Below are positions 23,991 to 32,000 of a stretch of DNA of 32,000 nt, in pieces; position 1 is the stretch's first letter; the number at the start of each line of letters is the position of its first letter. The notes under the pieces were generated by a model. That model did not search any database, had not been told where the DNA came from, and was given only the letters and a program-made list of their open reading frames with translations. Source of the DNA: Promethearchaeota archaeon (lineage in GTDB: Archaea > Asgardarchaeota > Hermodarchaeia > Hermodarchaeales > Hermodarchaeaceae); assembly GCA_048938295.1 (NCBI GenBank), contig JBHLMI010000019.1, positions 1 through 32,000 of the forward strand, given 5' to 3'. A program made the position numbers and the translations under genes.

Positions 23991-24452
23991 TCAGCTAGTA
24001 CTGCCAACTTTTTCCCAAGTTTTCCATTTACCTTGGGATCGCTGCACTAACACGAGGCCAAAGCGTTGCCAGATTTCTTCTCGGGTGAGAGGTTCTTCGG
24101 AGTCCGATTCCATTTGACTTGGGTGGCGTGGTTTCTCTAAAACAGAAGGTCTAGTATAGAAGAGGGAGTCGATGAGGGCACCCACACGACCTTTCTGATA
24201 TTGATCTTTGACGAAGATGAGGAGCTGTTCTGTGGGAATATCGGCCACTTGCAAGGAATGGCGGGCCACTCCTTGGCTAAACGAGGGGCAGACGCCACCC
24301 ATGGTGTTTTGGACAATTCCAAGACATTGGGGATCAATGAAAAATTGACAACGTAGACATTGGTGCCATCCCTTCTGGATCGCCTCTTCAAGTGTGATTC
24401 GGGTTCCGCAGGCGACACAACTGATGCCAACGGTGGAGAGATCAAGTTTCAT
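23991..24452 (-). CDS. RING-like (Nse1-type spacing) Zn-finger protein
   Basis: From ATG 24452 (GGAGGA 8 nt upstream; 11-nt overlap with the KITE gene): C12-x2-C15-x16-C32-x2-C35-x4-D40-x2-C43-x11-C55P-x8-H65. Confidence 0.65.
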   Translation of the reverse strand: MKLDLSTVGISCVACGTRITLEEAIQKGWHQCLRCQFFIDPQCLGIVQNTMGGVCPSFSQGVARHSLQVADIPTEQLLIFVKDQYQKGRVGALIDSLFYTRPSVLEKPRHPSQMESDSEEPLTREEIWQRFGLVLVQRSQGKWKTWEKVGSTS

Positions 24453-25026
24453 TCGCGTCTTCCTCCGAATCAGCTGTGGCTCCTGCGAGATACAGGGTTG
24501 CCGCAGTAGCGATGGCTTCACGACGTTCAGCATCAAATTCTAATTCAAGCCGTGGACCATAAGCAAGGCGTCGTGCAGTTCGCGTAATATAGCCCAGTTC
24601 GATTAATCGTCGTAATATGCGATCGAGTTGGTAGCGGGAGAGGCGCCCGCGGGCTACAAGGATCGTTTCGATGTCTTTTGTGGCTACCTGGCGTGGACGA
24701 CGGAGTTTACTCACCCGTTCCACAGTGGAAATGATGACTCCCAATACCGCGTATTCAGGATCGGTGAGTTCGCCAGGTACCCCGTAAATGGTTCGAACAC
24801 AGTAAAGCGTGTCCCGTCCCATTCGATATTCAACCAATTCTAGTCCCAGAGGAGATATCTGTTGGCGGAGTAAATCGAGAAGACGGACTAAGCCAGTCTT
24901 GTTGACATGAAGGGCTTCTAAAAGATCTTGCCGTTTGACCCCGATGCTGAGTTGACCTTCCTCATTTCGAAACCTTGCTGTGAGGGCCGCAAAGAGCTGA
25001 CCAAGGAGATGACGTTGTTCTATCAC
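24442..25026 (-). CDS. KITE-family tandem winged-helix protein (Nse1/Nse3/MAGE/ScpB-like)
   Basis: Two WH-like halves: 'LLRQQISPLGLELVE', 'LTDPEYAVLGVII' and 'LRRLIELGYI...YGPRLELEF'. GPRxxLE is typical of Nse3/MAGE and Nse1 WH-B. Located in the SMC operon; GTG start. Confidence 0.7.
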   Translation of the reverse strand: MIEQRHLLGQLFAALTARFRNEEGQLSIGVKRQDLLEALHVNKTGLVRLLDLLRQQISPLGLELVEYRMGRDTLYCVRTIYGVPGELTDPEYAVLGVIISTVERVSKLRRPRQVATKDIETILVARGRLSRYQLDRILRRLIELGYITRTARRLAYGPRLELEFDAERREAIATAATLYLAGATADSEEDANET

Positions 25027-25085
25027 CTCTTCCTCTGTATCCTTGCTAGTGGAAGAGATAGTGTCAGAAGGTATCGGATCTGAGG

Positions 25086-25877
25086 TTATTGCCGAGGAAC
25101 CTCCTCATGGTTTTGTGCGGTAATGGCAACAGCAGCGAAGGCAGGATTCGATTTAGGCGGAGGGCCTCGAAAAATGATTGCTGTTTTTTCGAAAATTGCA
25201 GGGCAGATGTTATCACGAATCATTTGACTGAGTAGATCGAGTTCCCAATTGGTCAGGATTTCTGATAAGGCTGCATAGTTGAAACGTTTGCCCTGTAGCC
25301 GTTTTAAGATAGCCGTCCTTCTAGCGTCAAGGGCGTCAATGGAGATTTGTTCAAATGAGATACGATGTTTGCGCATAGCCTGTTTATCATCCTGGGTAGG
25401 AGCGTGGTCCAATGCGACGGGTGAATCAACAGAGGGCAATTCGAATGGTGGGATTGTCCGCTCTTGATTAATTAGAAAGAGTAAGGGAGTCGCGCGCCGT
25501 TTAATCTCATTGGCAAACTGAGAAATCCATTCTTCGGGAGCAATTTCAGGAGCAGCTAATTGAGAATCTCGGTGATGCTGCATTGAAGCGAGAGTATAGT
25601 AGAAACGTCCGTCAAGAGTTCGTTCCCAGGGCGTTTCGAGGATGCGATATGCATCAGCAACTTCTTCACGGTCAACCTCCGCTTCCTTAATCGGAAACGT
25701 GTTGTGCTGTTTTAGGGCAACCTCATACTTTTTGGTCAAGTTCCATAGTGTAATTACAATCCCTTTGGTTCCAAAGGATGTGAGGCGTGTTCGCTTGTAG
25801 TTGTATTGGAAGGTGTCGTACCAGGCTTTGCGGCGCGGAAAGGCACGGAGAAATGTAGAGGTATCATTGGTAATCAT
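25086..25877 (-). CDS. Hypothetical protein, putative kleisin-like SMC partner
   Basis: Translationally coupled to SMC (TAATG overlap) and lies between SMC and KITE. It has a helical N-part, a Pro-rich linker and a possible C-terminal WH ('ILKRLQGKRFNYAAL...LLSQMIRDNIC'). The kleisin call is mainly positional. Confidence 0.5.
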   Translation of the reverse strand: MITNDTSTFLRAFPRRKAWYDTFQYNYKRTRLTSFGTKGIVITLWNLTKKYEVALKQHNTFPIKEAEVDREEVADAYRILETPWERTLDGRFYYTLASMQHHRDSQLAAPEIAPEEWISQFANEIKRRATPLLFLINQERTIPPFELPSVDSPVALDHAPTQDDKQAMRKHRISFEQISIDALDARRTAILKRLQGKRFNYAALSEILTNWELDLLSQMIRDNICPAIFEKTAIIFRGPPPKSNPAFAAVAITAQNHEEVPRQ

Positions 25878-28771
25878 TAGGCTTTCACCTGTCCTTTGAT
25901 CAGCACTACGTGATGCATAGTTTCTGGAATTTCGAGTCCCACCGTGGAGGGGGCCATTAGAAGAAACTGAGGATGAATTAGTGAGTCTTCCTGGGTTAAA
26001 TCGAGAGCGCGTTGAACTACACTGAGAATAGCTGCTCGGCTTGCTTCATCGAGGCGTTGGGTAAATTCATCAATGACATGGAGGGGACTCTTGGCAAGAG
26101 TGTGGAGGGCTAAAATAAAAGTCTGGGTGGCTAGGACCCGTTCGCCTCCAGACATTTCTTGATAGGTCCGCCAGTCGCCTTTGCGGTTAATGGCAAGTTG
26201 AAGGTGCAGCTCCGCACGACTGGGTTCATCGGGGAATCGAATAAGCAGTTTGACTTGCTTAAGGAAGTGGCTGAGTAATTGGTTCATGCGGTGGTTGAGG
26301 GTTTCAACCGTCTCTTGAAGCTGCCGTCTCCACTCGAGTAGTCTTCGATCAACGTCTGTCATCAGATTTTCTAAGTGGAGCTGACGTTGTTTTAGGTAGT
26401 CTTGGAGTTGGGAGACGACTTTTTCCTGGTCTTCAAAGGCTTGCCGATCTTCTGCTGTGGCGGTGATAGTATCAATCATCGCTTGGAGTTGGATTTGTTC
26501 ATCACGAACGGCTGTAGGGTTTCGAACAGTCTGTGGACGTTCTCCCAGCGCAGTGGCAGCCTTGCGGAAGTCCTTAGTTTGTTTTATGAGATGCTCATAT
26601 TCATCTTCGCGTTGCTTGAGTTCTGCAACGAGGTGGTTGATTTCAACCTGACGACGGGATCGTCGGAGGTCAAGGTTTTGGAGTTGTTCGGATAACTTTT
26701 GCTGTCGCGAGTTCAGCGGTGATAAGTCTGAGCTACATTCTTGATAATCTTGGCTGAGTCTGTCGCATTCAGTTTCCAGTTCAAGAATCTGTTGTTGTAA
26801 TTCGGCTACGCGGTGTTCAGAACCAGTGACCAGGGCTGTTCTTTCCTCATCAGAAAGATGAGATGAGTGGACTTGCTGAAGGTCTTGGAGGGTTGCCCGT
26901 AATTGGCTTATTTCAGAATTGATATGCATGCGGTCTCGCATTAAGCGAGCTTCTTGTTCCCGAAGTTCACGGAGTTGGATGCGTGTGTCAGCGCCGTCCT
27001 GAGCTAGCCCCAAATCTTTGAGTGATACATTCAGACTGACCGTAACTGGTCGGGGTGGTCGTGCAAAGGCACCGATCCGGAGATAATGACTCGTTCCTTC
27101 GCTAGTGATAATGTTGCCATTGAGTTGCTGAGAGGCATCGACTAGCGTATTGGGGTCGGCTCCTTCCTCTGCGATGGCAGTGTTTACGACTCGACTTAGG
27201 AAACTAATGGCATAGATATCCCCTTCAATGAGATCAGCAGCCCACCCAATGACAGGTGAAGAGACCGTGGGGCGATCTCGAGCTATCGCGGTGGTGGGGT
27301 TTGTTCGGGCGACCACCAAATCTGGTTTTTCATTTGGCCAGAGATGATCATAGAGGTTTTTAGCCTCAACGAAGACCTCTCGGTTCAGGGCAATGAATGC
27401 ATAGGTGTAGCGGCCCAATGCCAGTTTGACTGCGGTTTCGTACTGTGCATACTCTGGTTTCATACGAATAAGCGTAAAAAGGGGCCCAATCACTGCATCA
27501 GAGAGTGCTAGTTTATCAAGTTCAGACCGGTAACGAAGACAGGCCCGAAGTATCGTCTCTTCAAAATGTGGATACCGTTGGGGTTGAGTAAAGAGGTGCT
27601 CCTCCGTTATGGCAATATCTTGTCGGACCTGAACAAGTTGATCATCGATACCATCCCGATCCTGTATAATCGTCGCTAATTCTCTCTGAATGTCGTCAAT
27701 TTTGCTTTTTGCGGGTTTCCGACGTTTGTTGTACCGTTCTGTTCGAGCTAGCATACCTTTGAGTTCGTTTTCTAGCCCTTGTCGATGACCTTGGGCTTGC
27801 ATCCTTTCATCGCGTATCGAGTCCATGGTTGTAAGGAGCTTTTCCCGTTTTGCTTCAATCGCTTCGAAGTTCTCTTTCAGGTTGGCTTTCCTTTCGTCTA
27901 ACTTAGCCATTTTCTCGTTTTGGTCGGTGAGTTGGGTTTCAAGGCTGGTAAGTTGCGATTGGAGTTGGCTAGCGAGTTCTTCACGATAAGTCACTTCAGC
28001 CCAGGCAGCTTCAACATCGAGATCCTTCTGCCTTTGTTGGAGTTGCTGTTTTTGCTGAAAAGCTTCATAAGCTGCCTTTAGAACCTGAAGGCGCTGTTCT
28101 TCGTGGCGGATTCGGTATTCGAGGGGTTTGACATTGGCTTTAGCCTGTAATACGAGGAGACGGGCTTCCTCGAGTTTTTCCATCCAGTTGCGGAGCCCAG
28201 TTTCGTTCAAGAGAGTCTCGAATTTCCGCCGTGGGGATTGGGAGGCAAAGTGGTCTAAAGTCTCAGCCTCAGTAACGGCTAGGGGAGAATCCCCAAAGAG
28301 TCCAGCCGCTTGAAAGAGTTTCCGAATGTCCTTCCGAGCAATTTGCTGGCCATTCAGTGAGCGTTTTCCATTCAACCAGTAGGATATCCGGTTCGTTTCA
28401 TCGACTCGAAGTCGAATCGATACAACATCCGTATCAAGAAGCGTAGACATGGCAGGATCTGGGCTTCTTAAGACACGTCGACCGTTGAGTTGGTAGTTGT
28501 TAAGTTCTAGAATGACTTCAGCATATTTGTTGAAGCGACCGATGAAGGCCGAATTGCGTTGGCGTTGGGCTCTTCGAGATTCAACGCCAATGGCGAGTAA
28601 CAGGGCGTCGAGAATCAGGGTTTTTCCGCTTCCGTTAGAACCTGTAATTAGTATGACAGGGGATTCATCGAGTTGGATTTTGGTGTCACGGTGAATGACA
28701 AAGTTCACTAGGCGGATGCTGCGAAACACGACTGATGAAGTTGATAGGGACATCTCGTGCCTAGTGGTCAT
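25877..28771 (-). CDS. SMC-family ATPase, SMC5/6-like
   Basis: N-terminal IRLVNF..H with Walker A GSNGSGKT (44-51) and ILDALLLAIG; coiled coils; hinge-like VIGPLFTLI...AVKLALG..YAF; signature MSGGER, FILALHTLAKSPLHVIDEF..RLD, and QFLLMAP in place of the His switch, as in SMC5/6; 964 aa. Confidence 0.88.
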   Translation of the reverse strand: MTTRHEMSLSTSSVVFRSIRLVNFVIHRDTKIQLDESPVILITGSNGSGKTLILDALLLAIGVESRRAQRQRNSAFIGRFNKYAEVILELNNYQLNGRRVLRSPDPAMSTLLDTDVVSIRLRVDETNRISYWLNGKRSLNGQQIARKDIRKLFQAAGLFGDSPLAVTEAETLDHFASQSPRRKFETLLNETGLRNWMEKLEEARLLVLQAKANVKPLEYRIRHEEQRLQVLKAAYEAFQQKQQLQQRQKDLDVEAAWAEVTYREELASQLQSQLTSLETQLTDQNEKMAKLDERKANLKENFEAIEAKREKLLTTMDSIRDERMQAQGHRQGLENELKGMLARTERYNKRRKPAKSKIDDIQRELATIIQDRDGIDDQLVQVRQDIAITEEHLFTQPQRYPHFEETILRACLRYRSELDKLALSDAVIGPLFTLIRMKPEYAQYETAVKLALGRYTYAFIALNREVFVEAKNLYDHLWPNEKPDLVVARTNPTTAIARDRPTVSSPVIGWAADLIEGDIYAISFLSRVVNTAIAEEGADPNTLVDASQQLNGNIITSEGTSHYLRIGAFARPPRPVTVSLNVSLKDLGLAQDGADTRIQLRELREQEARLMRDRMHINSEISQLRATLQDLQQVHSSHLSDEERTALVTGSEHRVAELQQQILELETECDRLSQDYQECSSDLSPLNSRQQKLSEQLQNLDLRRSRRQVEINHLVAELKQREDEYEHLIKQTKDFRKAATALGERPQTVRNPTAVRDEQIQLQAMIDTITATAEDRQAFEDQEKVVSQLQDYLKQRQLHLENLMTDVDRRLLEWRRQLQETVETLNHRMNQLLSHFLKQVKLLIRFPDEPSRAELHLQLAINRKGDWRTYQEMSGGERVLATQTFILALHTLAKSPLHVIDEFTQRLDEASRAAILSVVQRALDLTQEDSLIHPQFLLMAPSTVGLEIPETMHHVVLIKGQVKA

Positions 28772-29013: not shown

Positions 29014-29334
29014 TTGAGTAAAGATGAAGGATTTTGGCGCTCAATCATCGTCGATGTTGAACCCCGTCAAAAGGAATTCCGAATCGGCATTGATGAAGAT
29101 ACCCGTGTCGATGAAGTCATCCGCACTCTTGTCACCCAGGCCCGTGATGAGGGCGTCAGTATTGACGATTGGGCTAAAGCAAAAATCGGGGACCAGCGTG
29201 CAGAATTTGTGCTCATTCGTAAAGCCCCTGAACCCACCAGGTTAAGCCCAGGTGTAACCTTCGGAGAGCTGGAACCAAAAATCACAGATGATGAGTTCTT
29301 CCTCCTCGATGTTGTCCCTGAAGTCGGACAATAG
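29014..29334 (+). CDS. Ubiquitin-like (beta-grasp) protein ending in -EVGQ
   Basis: TTG start with AGGTGA SD (29002-07). Pattern beta1 SIIVDV, beta2 EFRIGI, 'DEDTRVDEVIRTL' helix, FVLIRK, 'LSPGVTFGEL..I.DDEFFLL', then PEVGQ*. Next to an E2-like gene. Confidence 0.7.
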   Translation: MSKDEGFWRSIIVDVEPRQKEFRIGIDEDTRVDEVIRTLVTQARDEGVSIDDWAKAKIGDQRAEFVLIRKAPEPTRLSPGVTFGELEPKITDDEFFLLDVVPEVGQ

Positions 29335-29385: not shown

Positions 29386-30129
29386 ATGATCCGACCAGTA
29401 TTTTCTACCGAGCTGTTTAACGCCAGAGTGGAAACCCAGATTCAGACATTCTTTGATACCATGAACAATCTCTTTGGACGACGAGGATGGGATCCAGATC
29501 CTCCGCACCGCGAAGATACCGTCTGGAGCAATCGCGATTTCACCGTTGCTATCATCGATCGATACCGTGATGGGGCGTTTAAACGGATTCGCTTCACTAT
29601 GCGTTATCTTCCCGGGTTCGTTCGTAAACCCAGAAATCTAGAGGATACAAACGCTATACGTTATGAGCATCGGTTTGTCTTTGATTTACCCCGAGAGTAT
29701 CCTCAGAACATCGGCACTATTCGACCTATAGCCGAAACACCTCTGTATCACCCCAGACTAGCGGCTAGTGGAACTGGACATGCCTGCTACTCGGTTCGTG
29801 GGGAATTAGATCGTATCCTCGAAGATCTCCCCTTTTTTGTATTGCTAAAACCAGATCGAGTAGAACCACCATCTCAGTTTCAATCTGACCACGGTCTAAA
29901 TATGGCCGCTATGGCGTGGTATGAGCAAGATACAGATAGAATCGTTGAAACCTTAGATCAGCTCTGGGAAGCCCAGCACAAAGATGGTCCAGCTGCGCCT
30001 TCACGACAGGGACGGGTGCGTATTCTTGAAACCTCATCGACTAGCGGGCATTCAGGTCGAAGGTCACCCCGCGTTTTAGATGAACCAAGTAGACATACAT
30101 CGGTTCGGATTCTAGATGATGAGAGTTAG
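29386..30129 (+). CDS. E2/UBC-fold ubiquitin-conjugating-like protein with disordered C-terminal tail
   Basis: 'FVFDLPREYPQ...ETPLYHPR...G.GHAC' (H122-P123-R124; C134 is the only Cys) and 'GLNMAAMAWYEQD' match the UBC consensus F.I..P..YP...T..YHPN...G..C...LN..AA..Y; SD AAGGAG. Confidence 0.8.
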   Translation: MIRPVFSTELFNARVETQIQTFFDTMNNLFGRRGWDPDPPHREDTVWSNRDFTVAIIDRYRDGAFKRIRFTMRYLPGFVRKPRNLEDTNAIRYEHRFVFDLPREYPQNIGTIRPIAETPLYHPRLAASGTGHACYSVRGELDRILEDLPFFVLLKPDRVEPPSQFQSDHGLNMAAMAWYEQDTDRIVETLDQLWEAQHKDGPAAPSRQGRVRILETSSTSGHSGRRSPRVLDEPSRHTSVRILDDES

Positions 30130-30143
30130 ATGAGGTACCAACC

Positions 30144-30362
30144 ATGCCGGATTCACCTTTAAAGGAGAATGACACCCCCGACGAGCATGAGGAAGAGCTT
30201 GACAAATCATCGAAGGAACCTGAGAGGAAATCGCGGATTCAGATTCTCCGAGAGAGAGACATTCCCTTTGAAGAAGAACGTCCTCCCAACTTCTCACCCT
30301 ACTATTCCATTATAATTCATGGCAAAAAGAAACGATCTGAGCTAAAGGAGCGAGAGTCATGA
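30144..30362 (+). CDS. Small charged, probably disordered protein (72 aa)
   Basis: GAGGT SD; ATGA coupling to the next gene; contains RIQILRE and SIIIH. Confidence 0.6.
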   Translation: MPDSPLKENDTPDEHEEELDKSSKEPERKSRIQILRERDIPFEEERPPNFSPYYSIIIHGKKKRSELKERES

Positions 30363-30754
30363 GTGTGCATGGTGCATCCCAAATGCGGTGTGCGGCCTGT
30401 GCCACTCAAGTTTCACTTGAAAATGCACGGAGCCAATGGTGGATTTGCACAGTCTGTGGCAGCTATGTCTGTCCTTCGTGTCGTGCCCTCTTCTTAGAAT
30501 CAGGGCAAGACACCTGCCCCGGAGCAATTGTCCGTGGCAGTGAAGCCCACTCTCCCCACTTTACTCGGTTTTTGGGCCCTCGACTGGAATCGGAAAGTCA
30601 ACCTGCTGAGACACGAAGGCCTGTGAGAATATTAGGTGATGTCTCCAGACACTCACCTCAACCACCGGGTGGAAAAGTAGTTATTCTGTCAGATGAAGAG
30701 GGAATCGAATCCAGCTCTGAAGCCGACCAAGTAGGTCGAGATAATGACGAGTAA
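30359..30754 (+). CDS. RING-like/ZZ-like Zn-finger protein with acidic SIM-like tail
   Basis: C11-x2-C14-x15-C30-x2-C33-x4-C38-x2-C41-x11-C53P-x9-H64; paralog of 23991..24452; tail has VRILGD and VVILSDEE. Confidence 0.72.
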   Translation: MSVHGASQMRCAACATQVSLENARSQWWICTVCGSYVCPSCRALFLESGQDTCPGAIVRGSEAHSPHFTRFLGPRLESESQPAETRRPVRILGDVSRHSPQPPGGKVVILSDEEGIESSSEADQVGRDNDE

Positions 30755-32000
30755 CCTCCCCCTGTCTTTAAAAATCATCGCCCCTACGAGGCAAGATGGT
30801 GTTCCTAGAGTTAAAGCCGGTCAACGCATTTCTATTCAGTTGCAACGAAAAGGTCAAGCAAAATCGAATATTAAGGTTGACAATGGGGTCGTATACATCA
30901 ATGATCCCTTCGGGCGCATGGTGAGTAAGGTCCCTTTTCATTTTGGCAAAACTAATACAGGTGAATTTAGCGTGCCACTGACGGCAAACCTGCTGTCTGG
31001 ATTCTATACAATTCTCGTTGCTTTGCAGGAAACCCGCATCAAGCTCGCCGTCGATAAGTATCCCTATCGGGGACCTCCCAACGATCATTATGTCATGGGA
31101 TGCTTTCTCTTAGAAGGAGGACATCCACCCATTGTAGTACACAGGGTCAATTATTCGGCGACCGTGAAGAACATTACACGTGCTCGAATCAGCGATGTTC
31201 GAGTCATAATCGCTGCTCCACCCTCGCTACCTCCTCGACAAACGGTTCTAGATATTAGGTTCTCTCCGAAGGATGGACAACAACAGAATGATACCATCGG
31301 AAACCAATGGATTCGATTTCGTCAAGGAAGCCTTGCTGTGGGAGAATCCTTTACTTGTGGGTACACCGCGCTCATTCGGAATCGCGCACTCCGGTATAAT
31401 ATTCCGCCAGAAACTCACAACTCAACGTTACCAGCTAATATCGTCAAGTTCACCCAACCAGAGAATTTCATCGAATCACACCACCACCTCATCAAAGATC
31501 TTGCTCGTGATATTGCAAAAAATCATTCAACACCAATACAATTTGTACAAGCAGCGATGAGGGTAATTACAAAGAAGATGCGGTATGTTCGTCAAGAGTA
31601 TGAAAGAGGAGCAGCCTACGCTATCGAAAAAGGGGTTGGTGATTGCACTGAATATGCCGCTCTATTTGCTGCGTTGTGTCGTGCGAACAAAATCCCAGCC
31701 CGATTGGAGGCAGGCTATGCCTTTGATGGACAGTCCTGGGAACGCCATGCTTGGAGTGAAATTTGGATTCGGGGCCAATGGATCCCGGTTGATCCAACCT
31801 GGCATGGGGCTATGGGATTATTGGGAGTGACAAACCGACATATTCCTCTTATCATTGGAAACTGGATGGATACTCGCATCCGCCAAGAATTCAAAGTCAG
31901 CTGGTACTCTGATACTGTTGCTCTTGATGGAAAAAAGGGTGAGCGTTCTGAGCCCAAGATTGAGACGGGGTGGAAGGTGAAACGGGTGGTGGGTGTCCCT
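30744..32000 (+). CDS. Transglutaminase-like (Cys-His-Asp) protein, 3' truncated
   Basis: Not in the ORF track. I traced an open frame from ATG 30744 to the window end (419 codons, no stop). It contains GVGDCTEYAALFAALCRANKIPAR, RHAWSEIW and WIPVDPTW (C301, H335, D350), overlaps the previous gene by 11 nt, and has no obvious signal peptide. Confidence 0.85.
   Translation, partial: MTSNLPLSLKIIAPTRQDGVPRVKAGQRISIQLQRKGQAKSNIKVDNGVVYINDPFGRMVSKVPFHFGKTNTGEFSVPLTANLLSGFYTILVALQETRIKLAVDKYPYRGPPNDHYVMGCFLLEGGHPPIVVHRVNYSATVKNITRARISDVRVIIAAPPSLPPRQTVLDIRFSPKDGQQQNDTIGNQWIRFRQGSLAVGESFTCGYTALIRNRALRYNIPPETHNSTLPANIVKFTQPENFIESHHHLIKDLARDIAKNHSTPIQFVQAAMRVITKKMRYVRQEYERGAAYAIEKGVGDCTEYAALFAALCRANKIPARLEAGYAFDGQSWERHAWSEIWIRGQWIPVDPTWHGAMGLLGVTNRHIPLIIGNWMDTRIRQEFKVSWYSDTVALDGKKGERSEPKIETGWKVKRVVGVP

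Follow-up and report, generated by a model that had tools for sequence, protein, structure and literature searches.

The DNA analyzed here, called the window, is a stretch of 32,000 nucleotides, positions 1-32000 of a 49-kb contig (C16) from a 2.5-Mb Asgard metagenome-assembled genome (MAG) that is 91.6% complete. The last genes of the window form an operon that encodes, in this order, a ubiquitin-like modifier (Ubl), an E2-like conjugating protein, a small protein, a Zn-finger protein, and, as the last product, an enzyme with the transglutaminase fold (TGase), which is the subject of this study. The operon faces convergent E1 and JAB genes and lies back to back with an operon for a complex similar to SMC5/6 (SMC, structural maintenance of chromosomes). 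The TGase gene, the first three domains of its product, and the codons of the catalytic residues are located as follows.

30744..32000, + strand: gene of the transglutaminase-fold enzyme; the window has codons 1-419 of 533, and the gene end is contig position 32345.
30744..31030, + strand: MG2-like beta-sandwich, amino acids (aa) ~1-95 (~5-95 in the model); matches 2p9r (alpha-2-macroglobulin MG2) with Z 10.6, and Pfam MG2 weakly.
31089..31397, + strand: second beta-sandwich, aa ~116-218; by structure matches, the counterpart of the 3isr N-domain and of bacterial Bact_transglu_N.
31434..31985, + strand: transglutaminase/papain-like catalytic core, aa ~231-414; Pfam match at aa 252-351, and structure matches.
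31644..31646, + strand: codon TGC of Cys301, motif GDCTEY.
31746..31748, + strand: codon CAT of His335, motif ERHAW.
31791..31793, + strand: codon GAT of Asp350, motif VDPT.

The TGase gene begins before the Zn-finger gene ends: the two overlap by 11 nt, from the TGase ATG to the TAA stop codon of the Zn-finger gene at 30752-30754. An earlier note on this DNA had described an open frame of at least 419 codons that starts at 30744 within the 3′ end of the Zn-finger gene and has an intact C301-H335-D350 triad and no signal peptide, and this description was borne out. The frame is still open at the window end, and the recovery of the full gene from adjacent DNA that the note had proposed gave a frame of 533 codons, from 30744 to 32345 of the extended contig. 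The triad codons were verified, and the three residues are invariant in an alignment of 25 homologues (25-77% identity) and line up with the 3isr and TgpA catalytic residues. The Pfam profile Transglut_core (PF01841) matched aa 252-351 with an E value of 2e-24 and 86.4 bits, against a cut-off of 23, and all 108 profile positions were covered. Cysteines are found only at positions 120, 205, 301, and 312. No signal peptide or membrane helix was detected in the hydropathy profile of the TGase (maximum Kyte-Doolittle mean over 19 residues, 1.5; 0.21 in the N-terminal 30 residues). The protein has no export signal and its N-terminus is hydrophilic; it is therefore considered cytosolic. About 20 full-length orthologues, named Promethearchaeota or Thorarchaeota at NCBI, were found in independent assemblies, which is far above chance and shows that the gene is real. 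Synonymous divergence (dS) between the TGase gene and that of an orthologue with 66% identity is saturated. The TGase is a genuine cytosolic thiol enzyme of the transglutaminase (papain-like) fold with its triad intact, and it is probably catalytically active. Two more Transglut_core paralogues are present in the same genome (C61:27185-27508 and C26:36920-37285, in open frames of 1183 and 427 aa). The sequencing runs listed are sediment, soil, and mangrove DNA metagenomes with no RNA data among them, and they say nothing about expression.

An AlphaFold2 (AF2) model built from the alignment of 25 sequences (pLDDT 86.3, pTM 0.86) divides the TGase into four domains: the MG2-like sandwich, the second sandwich, the papain-like core, and an Ig-like sandwich at aa ~431-533. 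The papain-like alpha/beta architecture predicted for the core is also that of its structure matches. The top match by far was 3isr, from Cytophaga hutchinsonii, deposited as a putative cysteine protease (Z 23.3 over TGase aa 127-417, 255 residues, root-mean-square deviation 3.6; Foldseek E 9e-17). It was followed by Streptococcus pyogenes TglA (Z 12.0), TgpA (10.7), TG3 (10.2), TG2 and FXIII (~10), and LapG (9.1), a transglutaminase-like cysteine protease. In the genus of the window the 533-aa TGase is found in seven species and a 290-aa form in another seven (genomes G091, G011, G110, G060, G052, G122, and G085; loci L029, L031, L034-L038, and L040-L044). The short form consists of the second sandwich and the core and lacks the MG2-like N-domain and the Ig-like C-domain; its sequences match only profile positions 128-414, form a derived subclade on the tree, and belong to an ESM Atlas cluster labelled mostly Hermodarchaeota. 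Since these forms fill the same operon slot in half of the same-genus genomes, the outer domains are dispensable. No longer fused form of the core (934-2665 aa) was found at E<=1e-10, which is weak evidence. The predicted complex of TGase residues 110-425 with the Ubl scored 0.03, where the mark was 0.32, and counts neither for nor against binding.

The operon to which the TGase gene belongs and the operon that diverges from it contain the following features.

29014..29334, + strand: Ubl, 106 aa; beta-grasp AF2 model with pLDDT 85; C-terminus Val-Gly with a variable tail, which is Gln in this genome.
29386..30129, + strand: E2-like protein, 247 aa; HPR...C134; C-terminal tail with VRIL motifs.
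30144..30362, + strand: small protein, 72 aa; acidic disordered N-part and conserved C-terminal motif IxIL-ERDIPF-x-PPNFSPY.
30359..30754, + strand: Zn-finger protein, 131 aa; CxxC-x15-CxxC-x4-CxxC-x11-C-x10-H; disordered tail with VRIL/VVIL motifs.
23991..28771, - strand: SMC5/6-like operon (SMC, kleisin-like, kite-like, and paralogous Zn finger); divergent; Pfam SMC_N.

Just outside the window, 4 bp past the TGase stop codon, lies the convergent gene of a ThiF-type E1 (287 aa, Pfam E 6e-35), overlapped by the gene of a Prok-JAB protein (207 aa, E 5e-9) whose JAMM motif, HSHPFGGDPQFSSTD (HxH...SxxD), is intact. The locus is a complete Ubl-E1-E2-Zn finger-JAB system with two extra genes, those of the 72-aa protein and the TGase. 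It shows the clustering known from archaeal systems of the E1-E2-RING-JAB type, with a modifier that has a C-terminal Gly, a ThiF E1, an E2 with its Cys, and a JAMM protease. The E1 and the JAB bear directly on the two roles that the earlier note had considered for the TGase, that of the Ubl protease, in place of a JAB, and that of an E1-independent ligase using the terminal Gln of the Ubl. Inside the window neither an E1 nor a JAB is visible, and the Ubl of this genome does end in Gly-Gln. Both proteins are nevertheless encoded directly past the TGase stop codon and are kept with the TGase in relatives. Moreover, in an alignment of Ubl C-termini the Val-Gly is invariant and the tail after it is Q, K, F, IK, FSS, or absent, so that the terminal Gln represents a variable pro-peptide tail and not a conserved reactive residue. 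That the TGase is the sole Ubl protease, or an E1-free ligase acting through the terminal Gln, is therefore highly improbable.

To assess whether the TGase is tied to the Ubl genes beyond this locus, 301 sampled Asgard genomes were searched with profiles of this E2 and of the TGase. Families are designated f1 (that of the window), f4, f5, f27, and f29. This type of E2 was found only in four families, in 18/18 genomes of f1, 1/1 of f5, 9/11 of f27, and 2/2 of f29, and a strong TGase homologue was present in all four. In f1, the arrangement E2-small protein-Zn finger-TGase with convergent E1-JAB was conserved on every informative contig (18 other genomes and the window's own), and it also holds in the seven same-genus genomes with the 290-aa TGase. 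The whole 17-kb region, which includes deacetylase, HAD, and malic enzyme genes, is collinear in this family; synteny within f1 alone is therefore weak evidence, and the other families provide the stronger one. The operons of f5 and f29 have the order Ubl-E2-small protein-TGase without the Zn finger, and in f5 and at one of the two f29 loci the small-protein gene either adjoins or overlaps that of the TGase. In f27, whose matches are named Heimdallarchaeota, a Zn finger-TGase pair lies 7-40 kb from the Ubl cluster on the same contig in six genomes, and the two genes stay paired while their distance to the cluster varies. The Zn-finger gene thus adjoins the TGase gene in f1 and f27, and the small-protein gene follows that of the E2 in all four families. 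JAB and E1 orthologues accompany the TGase in f27, f5, and f29. The coupling to the Ubl-E2-Zn-finger operon proposed in the earlier note was consequently found to recur in four Asgard families, within one operon in three of them and at a distance in f27.

A second connection is a short motif, [VI][RK]I[IL], which recurs throughout the tails of both E2 and Zn finger (window 30016-30700) and is present as the variant IQIL in the small protein. The same motif is found twice in the linker (aa ~414-440) of six of the seven f27 TGases (L045-L048, L007, and L009), and the f5 TGase has one copy close to its C-terminus. The motif is rare in the genome, with a background of 0.15 per 1000 aa; two or more copies are found in only 5 of 1942 long open reading frames. 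The motifs resemble SUMO-interacting motifs (SIMs), and are followed by acidic or polar residues.

These results can be set against the possibility that the TGase is a genomic passenger, a generic transglutaminase-like protein of the COG1305 type that is functionally unrelated to the Ubl genes. Transglut_core is indeed a common domain, with the two further copies in this genome and profile matches in 141 of the 301 genomes, and the f1 synteny mostly reflects the shared ancestry of the collinear region. However, the linkage outlasts rearrangement in four families with differing gene orders, start and stop codons overlap, and the short motif of the system is located inside the TGase itself in f27 and f5. 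A mere passenger is hence improbable. The TGase is a conserved extra gene of the Ubl operon that adds to the E1 and the JAB and replaces neither, and the gene neighborhoods make it quite probable that it acts on the Ubl pathway.

Several other features were observed at the f27 loci. In two genomes (G231 and G261; L062:101-6590 and L064:66-7138) the genes SMC-kleisin-like-kite-like-ZnF2-JAB-E1-Ubl-E2-small protein, where ZnF2 is the Zn finger of the SMC operon, form one co-directional cluster, so that the SMC5/6-like complex and the Ubl cascade are linked more closely there than by the divergent arrangement of the window. The Zn finger-TGase pair is always followed by the gene of a protein of 616-618 aa with N-terminal transmembrane helices and no Pfam family (L007:9803-11659, L008:9808-11664, and L009:9897-11747), and is preceded by histidyl-tRNA synthetase (HisRS) and two aromatic amino-acid lyase genes. 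A TGase homologue of 538 aa from a Planctomycetota MAG (P0029, L065:6457-8630) is encoded directly after a MoaE gene and near HisRS, outside any Ubl operon; the presence of HisRS next to the TGase in both cases is possibly a coincidence. Another homologue, from a sister clade (P0022, 389 aa), is at a contig start beside VWA and PP2C genes, and neither neighborhood is informative.

The remaining proteins of the operon support its assignment as a Ubl system. The model of the Ubl matched ubiquitin, SUMO1, and Hub1 in Foldseek with TM scores of 0.7-0.77. Across the four families its overall identity is 53-56%, and a block of 11 residues, VDVEPRQKEFR, which extends from strand 1 through the beta1-beta2 turn to the beginning of strand 2, is invariant. 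In the 247-aa E2, H122-P123-R124 and C134 are invariant; no Pfam family, including UQ_con, was matched, and the nearest ESM Atlas clusters are UQ_con (score 0.95, 206 shared features). Pfam matches of the Zn finger (RING-like, FYVE, and others) were weak and all under the cut-off. Another contig of the genome (C53:3704-5989) has two E2 genes of the canonical UQ_con type (113 and 56 bits), so that the operon represents a second, divergent Ubl system in an organism that probably also has the standard Asgard ubiquitin system. The PADLOC and NCBIfam models of anti-phage Ubl systems (CBASS Cap2/Cap3, Bil, and 6A-MBL) gave only generic E1 and JAB domain matches, and no match to the TGase, E2, Ubl, Zn finger, or small protein. 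In all f1 loci the JAB gene is followed by that of a superfamily-2 helicase of 489 aa (ResIII and Helicase_C; C16:33989-35458, minus strand in this genome) with a weak match to the ERCC3/RAD25 C-terminus, which may indicate a DNA-repair link to the SMC5/6-like operon.

Taking these observations together, we hypothesized that the TGase would be a conserved accessory enzyme of a second, divergent, SMC5/6-linked Asgard Ubl system, where it would act as a hydrolytic Cys-His-Asp (iso)peptidase whose substrates are Ubl conjugates or proteins marked with the Ubl. The TGase would then complement the JAB metalloprotease, in the way that eukaryotic Ubl systems pair JAMM enzymes with papain-like cysteine proteases. 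A thiol (iso)peptidase is the simplest reading because the protein is a papain-like Cys-His-Asp enzyme, is cytosolic, and is encoded inside a Ubl operon. The deposition of 3isr, the closest solved relative, as a putative cysteine protease and the match to LapG point in the same direction. All cysteine Ubl proteases known to us are papain-like enzymes with Cys-His-Asp/Asn residues. The assignment as accessory (iso)peptidase, which is based on this analogy, is tentative, and we place it somewhat below an even chance. If action on the Ubl pathway is granted, peptidase chemistry, as opposed to acyl transfer or deamidation, comes close to an even chance without quite reaching it.

Several points weigh against this hypothesis. 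The JAB of Caldiarchaeum processes pro-ubiquitin and deconjugates by itself (PMC5654768); as one enzyme covers both jobs there and the JAB is intact here, a second protease would not be needed. The Ubl has no tail in f27, in f5, and in some f1 genomes that retain the TGase, and the processing of a pro-Ubl can therefore not be its general role. No known deubiquitinase (DUB) or Ubl-specific protease (ULP) family is among the matches listed in the Pfam, PDB-sequence, and fold searches. A TGase of the same subfamily, as judged by the tree, is present in 25/29 genomes of family f4, where the Ubl was found in 0/5 genomes (two of them closed) and an E2 of this type in 0/29; in the one closed f4 genome searched, orthologous JAB and E1 were not found either. 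The enzyme can thus work without this Ubl. Finally, the synteny within families is largely inherited and non-independent, and hydrolysis and acyl transfer are indistinguishable from the present results.

The f4 genomes also bear on another explanation, in which the TGase acts on other proteins, such as chromatin or SMC5/6-associated proteins, and is itself recruited or controlled through Ubl conjugation or SIM-like binding of the Ubl. Operon-encoded targets of Ubl conjugation are found in bacterial systems of the CBASS and Bil types. The f4 TGase, in the absence of this Ubl and E2, stays 5-8 kb from the SMC5/6-like-ZnF2 operon, and the closed genome without an orthologous E1 or JAB belongs to this group. 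The f27 TGase is paired with a Zn finger of the SMC-operon family at a distance from the Ubl genes, and its linker has the SIM-like motifs. On the other hand, the genes between TGase and SMC operon in f4 encode membrane or secreted proteins, and the proximity may be residual synteny; in f1, f5, and f29 the TGase gene is part of the Ubl operon itself, and no substrate candidate was found. This explanation is regarded as unlikely.

Another alternative retains the Ubl pathway as the site of action and differs from the (iso)peptidase hypothesis in the chemistry. The TGase could be an acyl-transfer enzyme that functions like a HECT or RBR E3 through a Cys301 thioester, with the Ubl passed from E2~Ubl to Cys301 and then to a lysine, possibly together with the adjacent RING-like Zn finger. 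It could otherwise be a transglutaminase or deamidase that acts on a conserved Gln of the Ubl, as MavC or Cif do, with the invariant Gln19-Lys20 as the candidate site. Transglutaminases form a thioester at their catalytic Cys, which is then resolved by aminolysis, and the TGase core matches those of animal TG3, TG2, and FXIII with Z ~10. The presumed RING-type E3 is less constant than the TGase, as the f5 and f29 operons have the TGase and lack the Zn finger, and translation of the TGase gene is coupled to that of the Zn-finger or the small-protein gene. Gln19 and Lys20, in the beta1-beta2 turn, are part of the invariant Ubl block. However, the version that uses the terminal Gln fails because that residue is unconserved and an E1 is present, and no positive evidence was found for transglutaminase or MavC-like chemistry on another Ubl residue, for instance Gln19. 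The nearest relatives are bacterial proteins of the COG1305 type, generally predicted to be proteases, and f4 retains the enzyme without any Ubl. MavC, MvcA, and Cif are absent from the sequence and fold matches listed, which is not decisive. Acyl transfer as a whole is thus unlikely. It is more doubtful still that the TGase is a catalytic-Cys transferase, with a Ubl thioester on Cys301 as an analogue of HECT/RBR enzymes on another fold, or a Gln19 cross-linker or deamidase.

To our knowledge, a metalloprotease is the only hydrolytic component of the known archaeal Ubl systems (SAMP/UbaA/JAMM, Urm1-like, and the Caldiarchaeum/Asgard Ub-E1-E2-RING-Rpn11 type), whereas in eukaryotes cysteine DUBs and ULPs dominate. 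A full-text literature search returned no paper that describes a transglutaminase-like component of Ubl operons in archaea, Asgard archaea included, and a search on Rv2569c and TglA likewise found no description. If action on the Ubl is correct, the TGase would be the first candidate cysteine-type Ubl protease or ligase in the lineage closest to eukaryotes. Were the transferase or Gln19 reading true, this kind of enzyme would be new to the Ubl cascades of cellular organisms and would belong to a SUMO-like, SMC5/6-linked system of Asgard archaea. The operon is tied to an SMC5/6-like complex and its proteins other than the Ubl carry SIM-like motifs; the system is therefore a possible forerunner of the SUMO-Smc5/6 connection, of which the TGase would be the least understood part. 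The proteins of the system are all small and soluble, which makes it tractable in vitro.

The TGase was compared with enzymes of related fold or function. Animal transglutaminases (TG2, TG3, and FXIII) superpose on its core with Z ~10 and a whole-chain TM below 0.2, and the sandwich-core-sandwich order of the TGase is only loosely similar to theirs (sandwich, core, two barrels); none was found at E<=1 in a profile search of PDB sequences. Legionella MavC and MvcA, a transglutaminase that joins ubiquitin through Gln40 to UBE2N and the deamidase that reverses the reaction, act on a Ubl and an E2 without an E1; MavC is the precedent that the earlier note had cited. They and the Cif deamidases are, like the TGase, papain-like enzymes with a Cys-His triad, but are of the Cif-like family, and the system described here differs from that of MavC in having an E1 and a JAB and in its unconserved C-terminal Gln. 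The transglutaminase-like domains of PNGase and Rad4/XPC are bound by the Ubl-UBA protein Rad23 (PMC6222260). They offer a parallel, in that a transglutaminase fold is tied to the ubiquitin system, but a functional one only, and specific homology was not found. The TGase lacks a CxxC pair and a match to Pfam Rad4 (PF03835), and no PNGase or Rad4 chain is among the best sequence and structure matches listed, a point that alone is not decisive. PNGase has a Zn module N-terminal to its core, and here a separate Zn-finger gene is directly upstream. A "split PNGase" composed of Zn module and transglutaminase-like core was considered and rejected, since the Zn-finger protein encoded upstream is binuclear and RING-like, has a long disordered tail, and is a paralogue of that of the SMC operon. 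Neither the PNGase/Rad4 group nor the MavC/Cif group appears in the sequence and fold lists, so that no specific kinship with either can be claimed.

The eukaryotic UCH, USP, OTU, ULP/SENP, UFSP, and ATG4 proteases share with the TGase the cytosolic papain-like Cys-His-Asp/Asn class and the company of JAMM proteases; the TGase had no Pfam or NCBIfam match to any of them, and none is among the structure matches listed, which is not decisive. The Ubl studied here ends in Val-Gly like UFM1, whose precursor ends in Val-Gly plus a short tail that is taken off by a cysteine protease. The bacterial COG1305 proteins represented by 3isr (Bact_transglu_N plus Transglut_core) have the same unit of sandwich and papain-like core, with Cys, His, and Asp at the same positions. 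To this unit the Asgard TGase adds the MG2-like N-domain, the Ig-like C-domain, and the setting in a Ubl-E2 operon, while 3isr itself is without demonstrated function or Ubl context. The closest system as a whole is the ubiquitin operon of the Caldiarchaeum/Asgard type, which consists of Ub, E1, E2, a small RING finger, and Rpn11/JAB (PMC5654768). Both have a beta-grasp modifier, which ends in Gly or, in some cases, in a pro-peptide after it, together with a ThiF E1, an E2 with a catalytic Cys, a small Zn-finger protein, and a JAB. The modifier described here differs from the Caldiarchaeum type in ending in Val-Gly instead of Gly-Gly, its E2 is too divergent for Pfam UQ_con, and the operon is distinguished by two extra conserved genes, those of the small protein and the TGase, and by its linkage to an SMC5/6-like complex.

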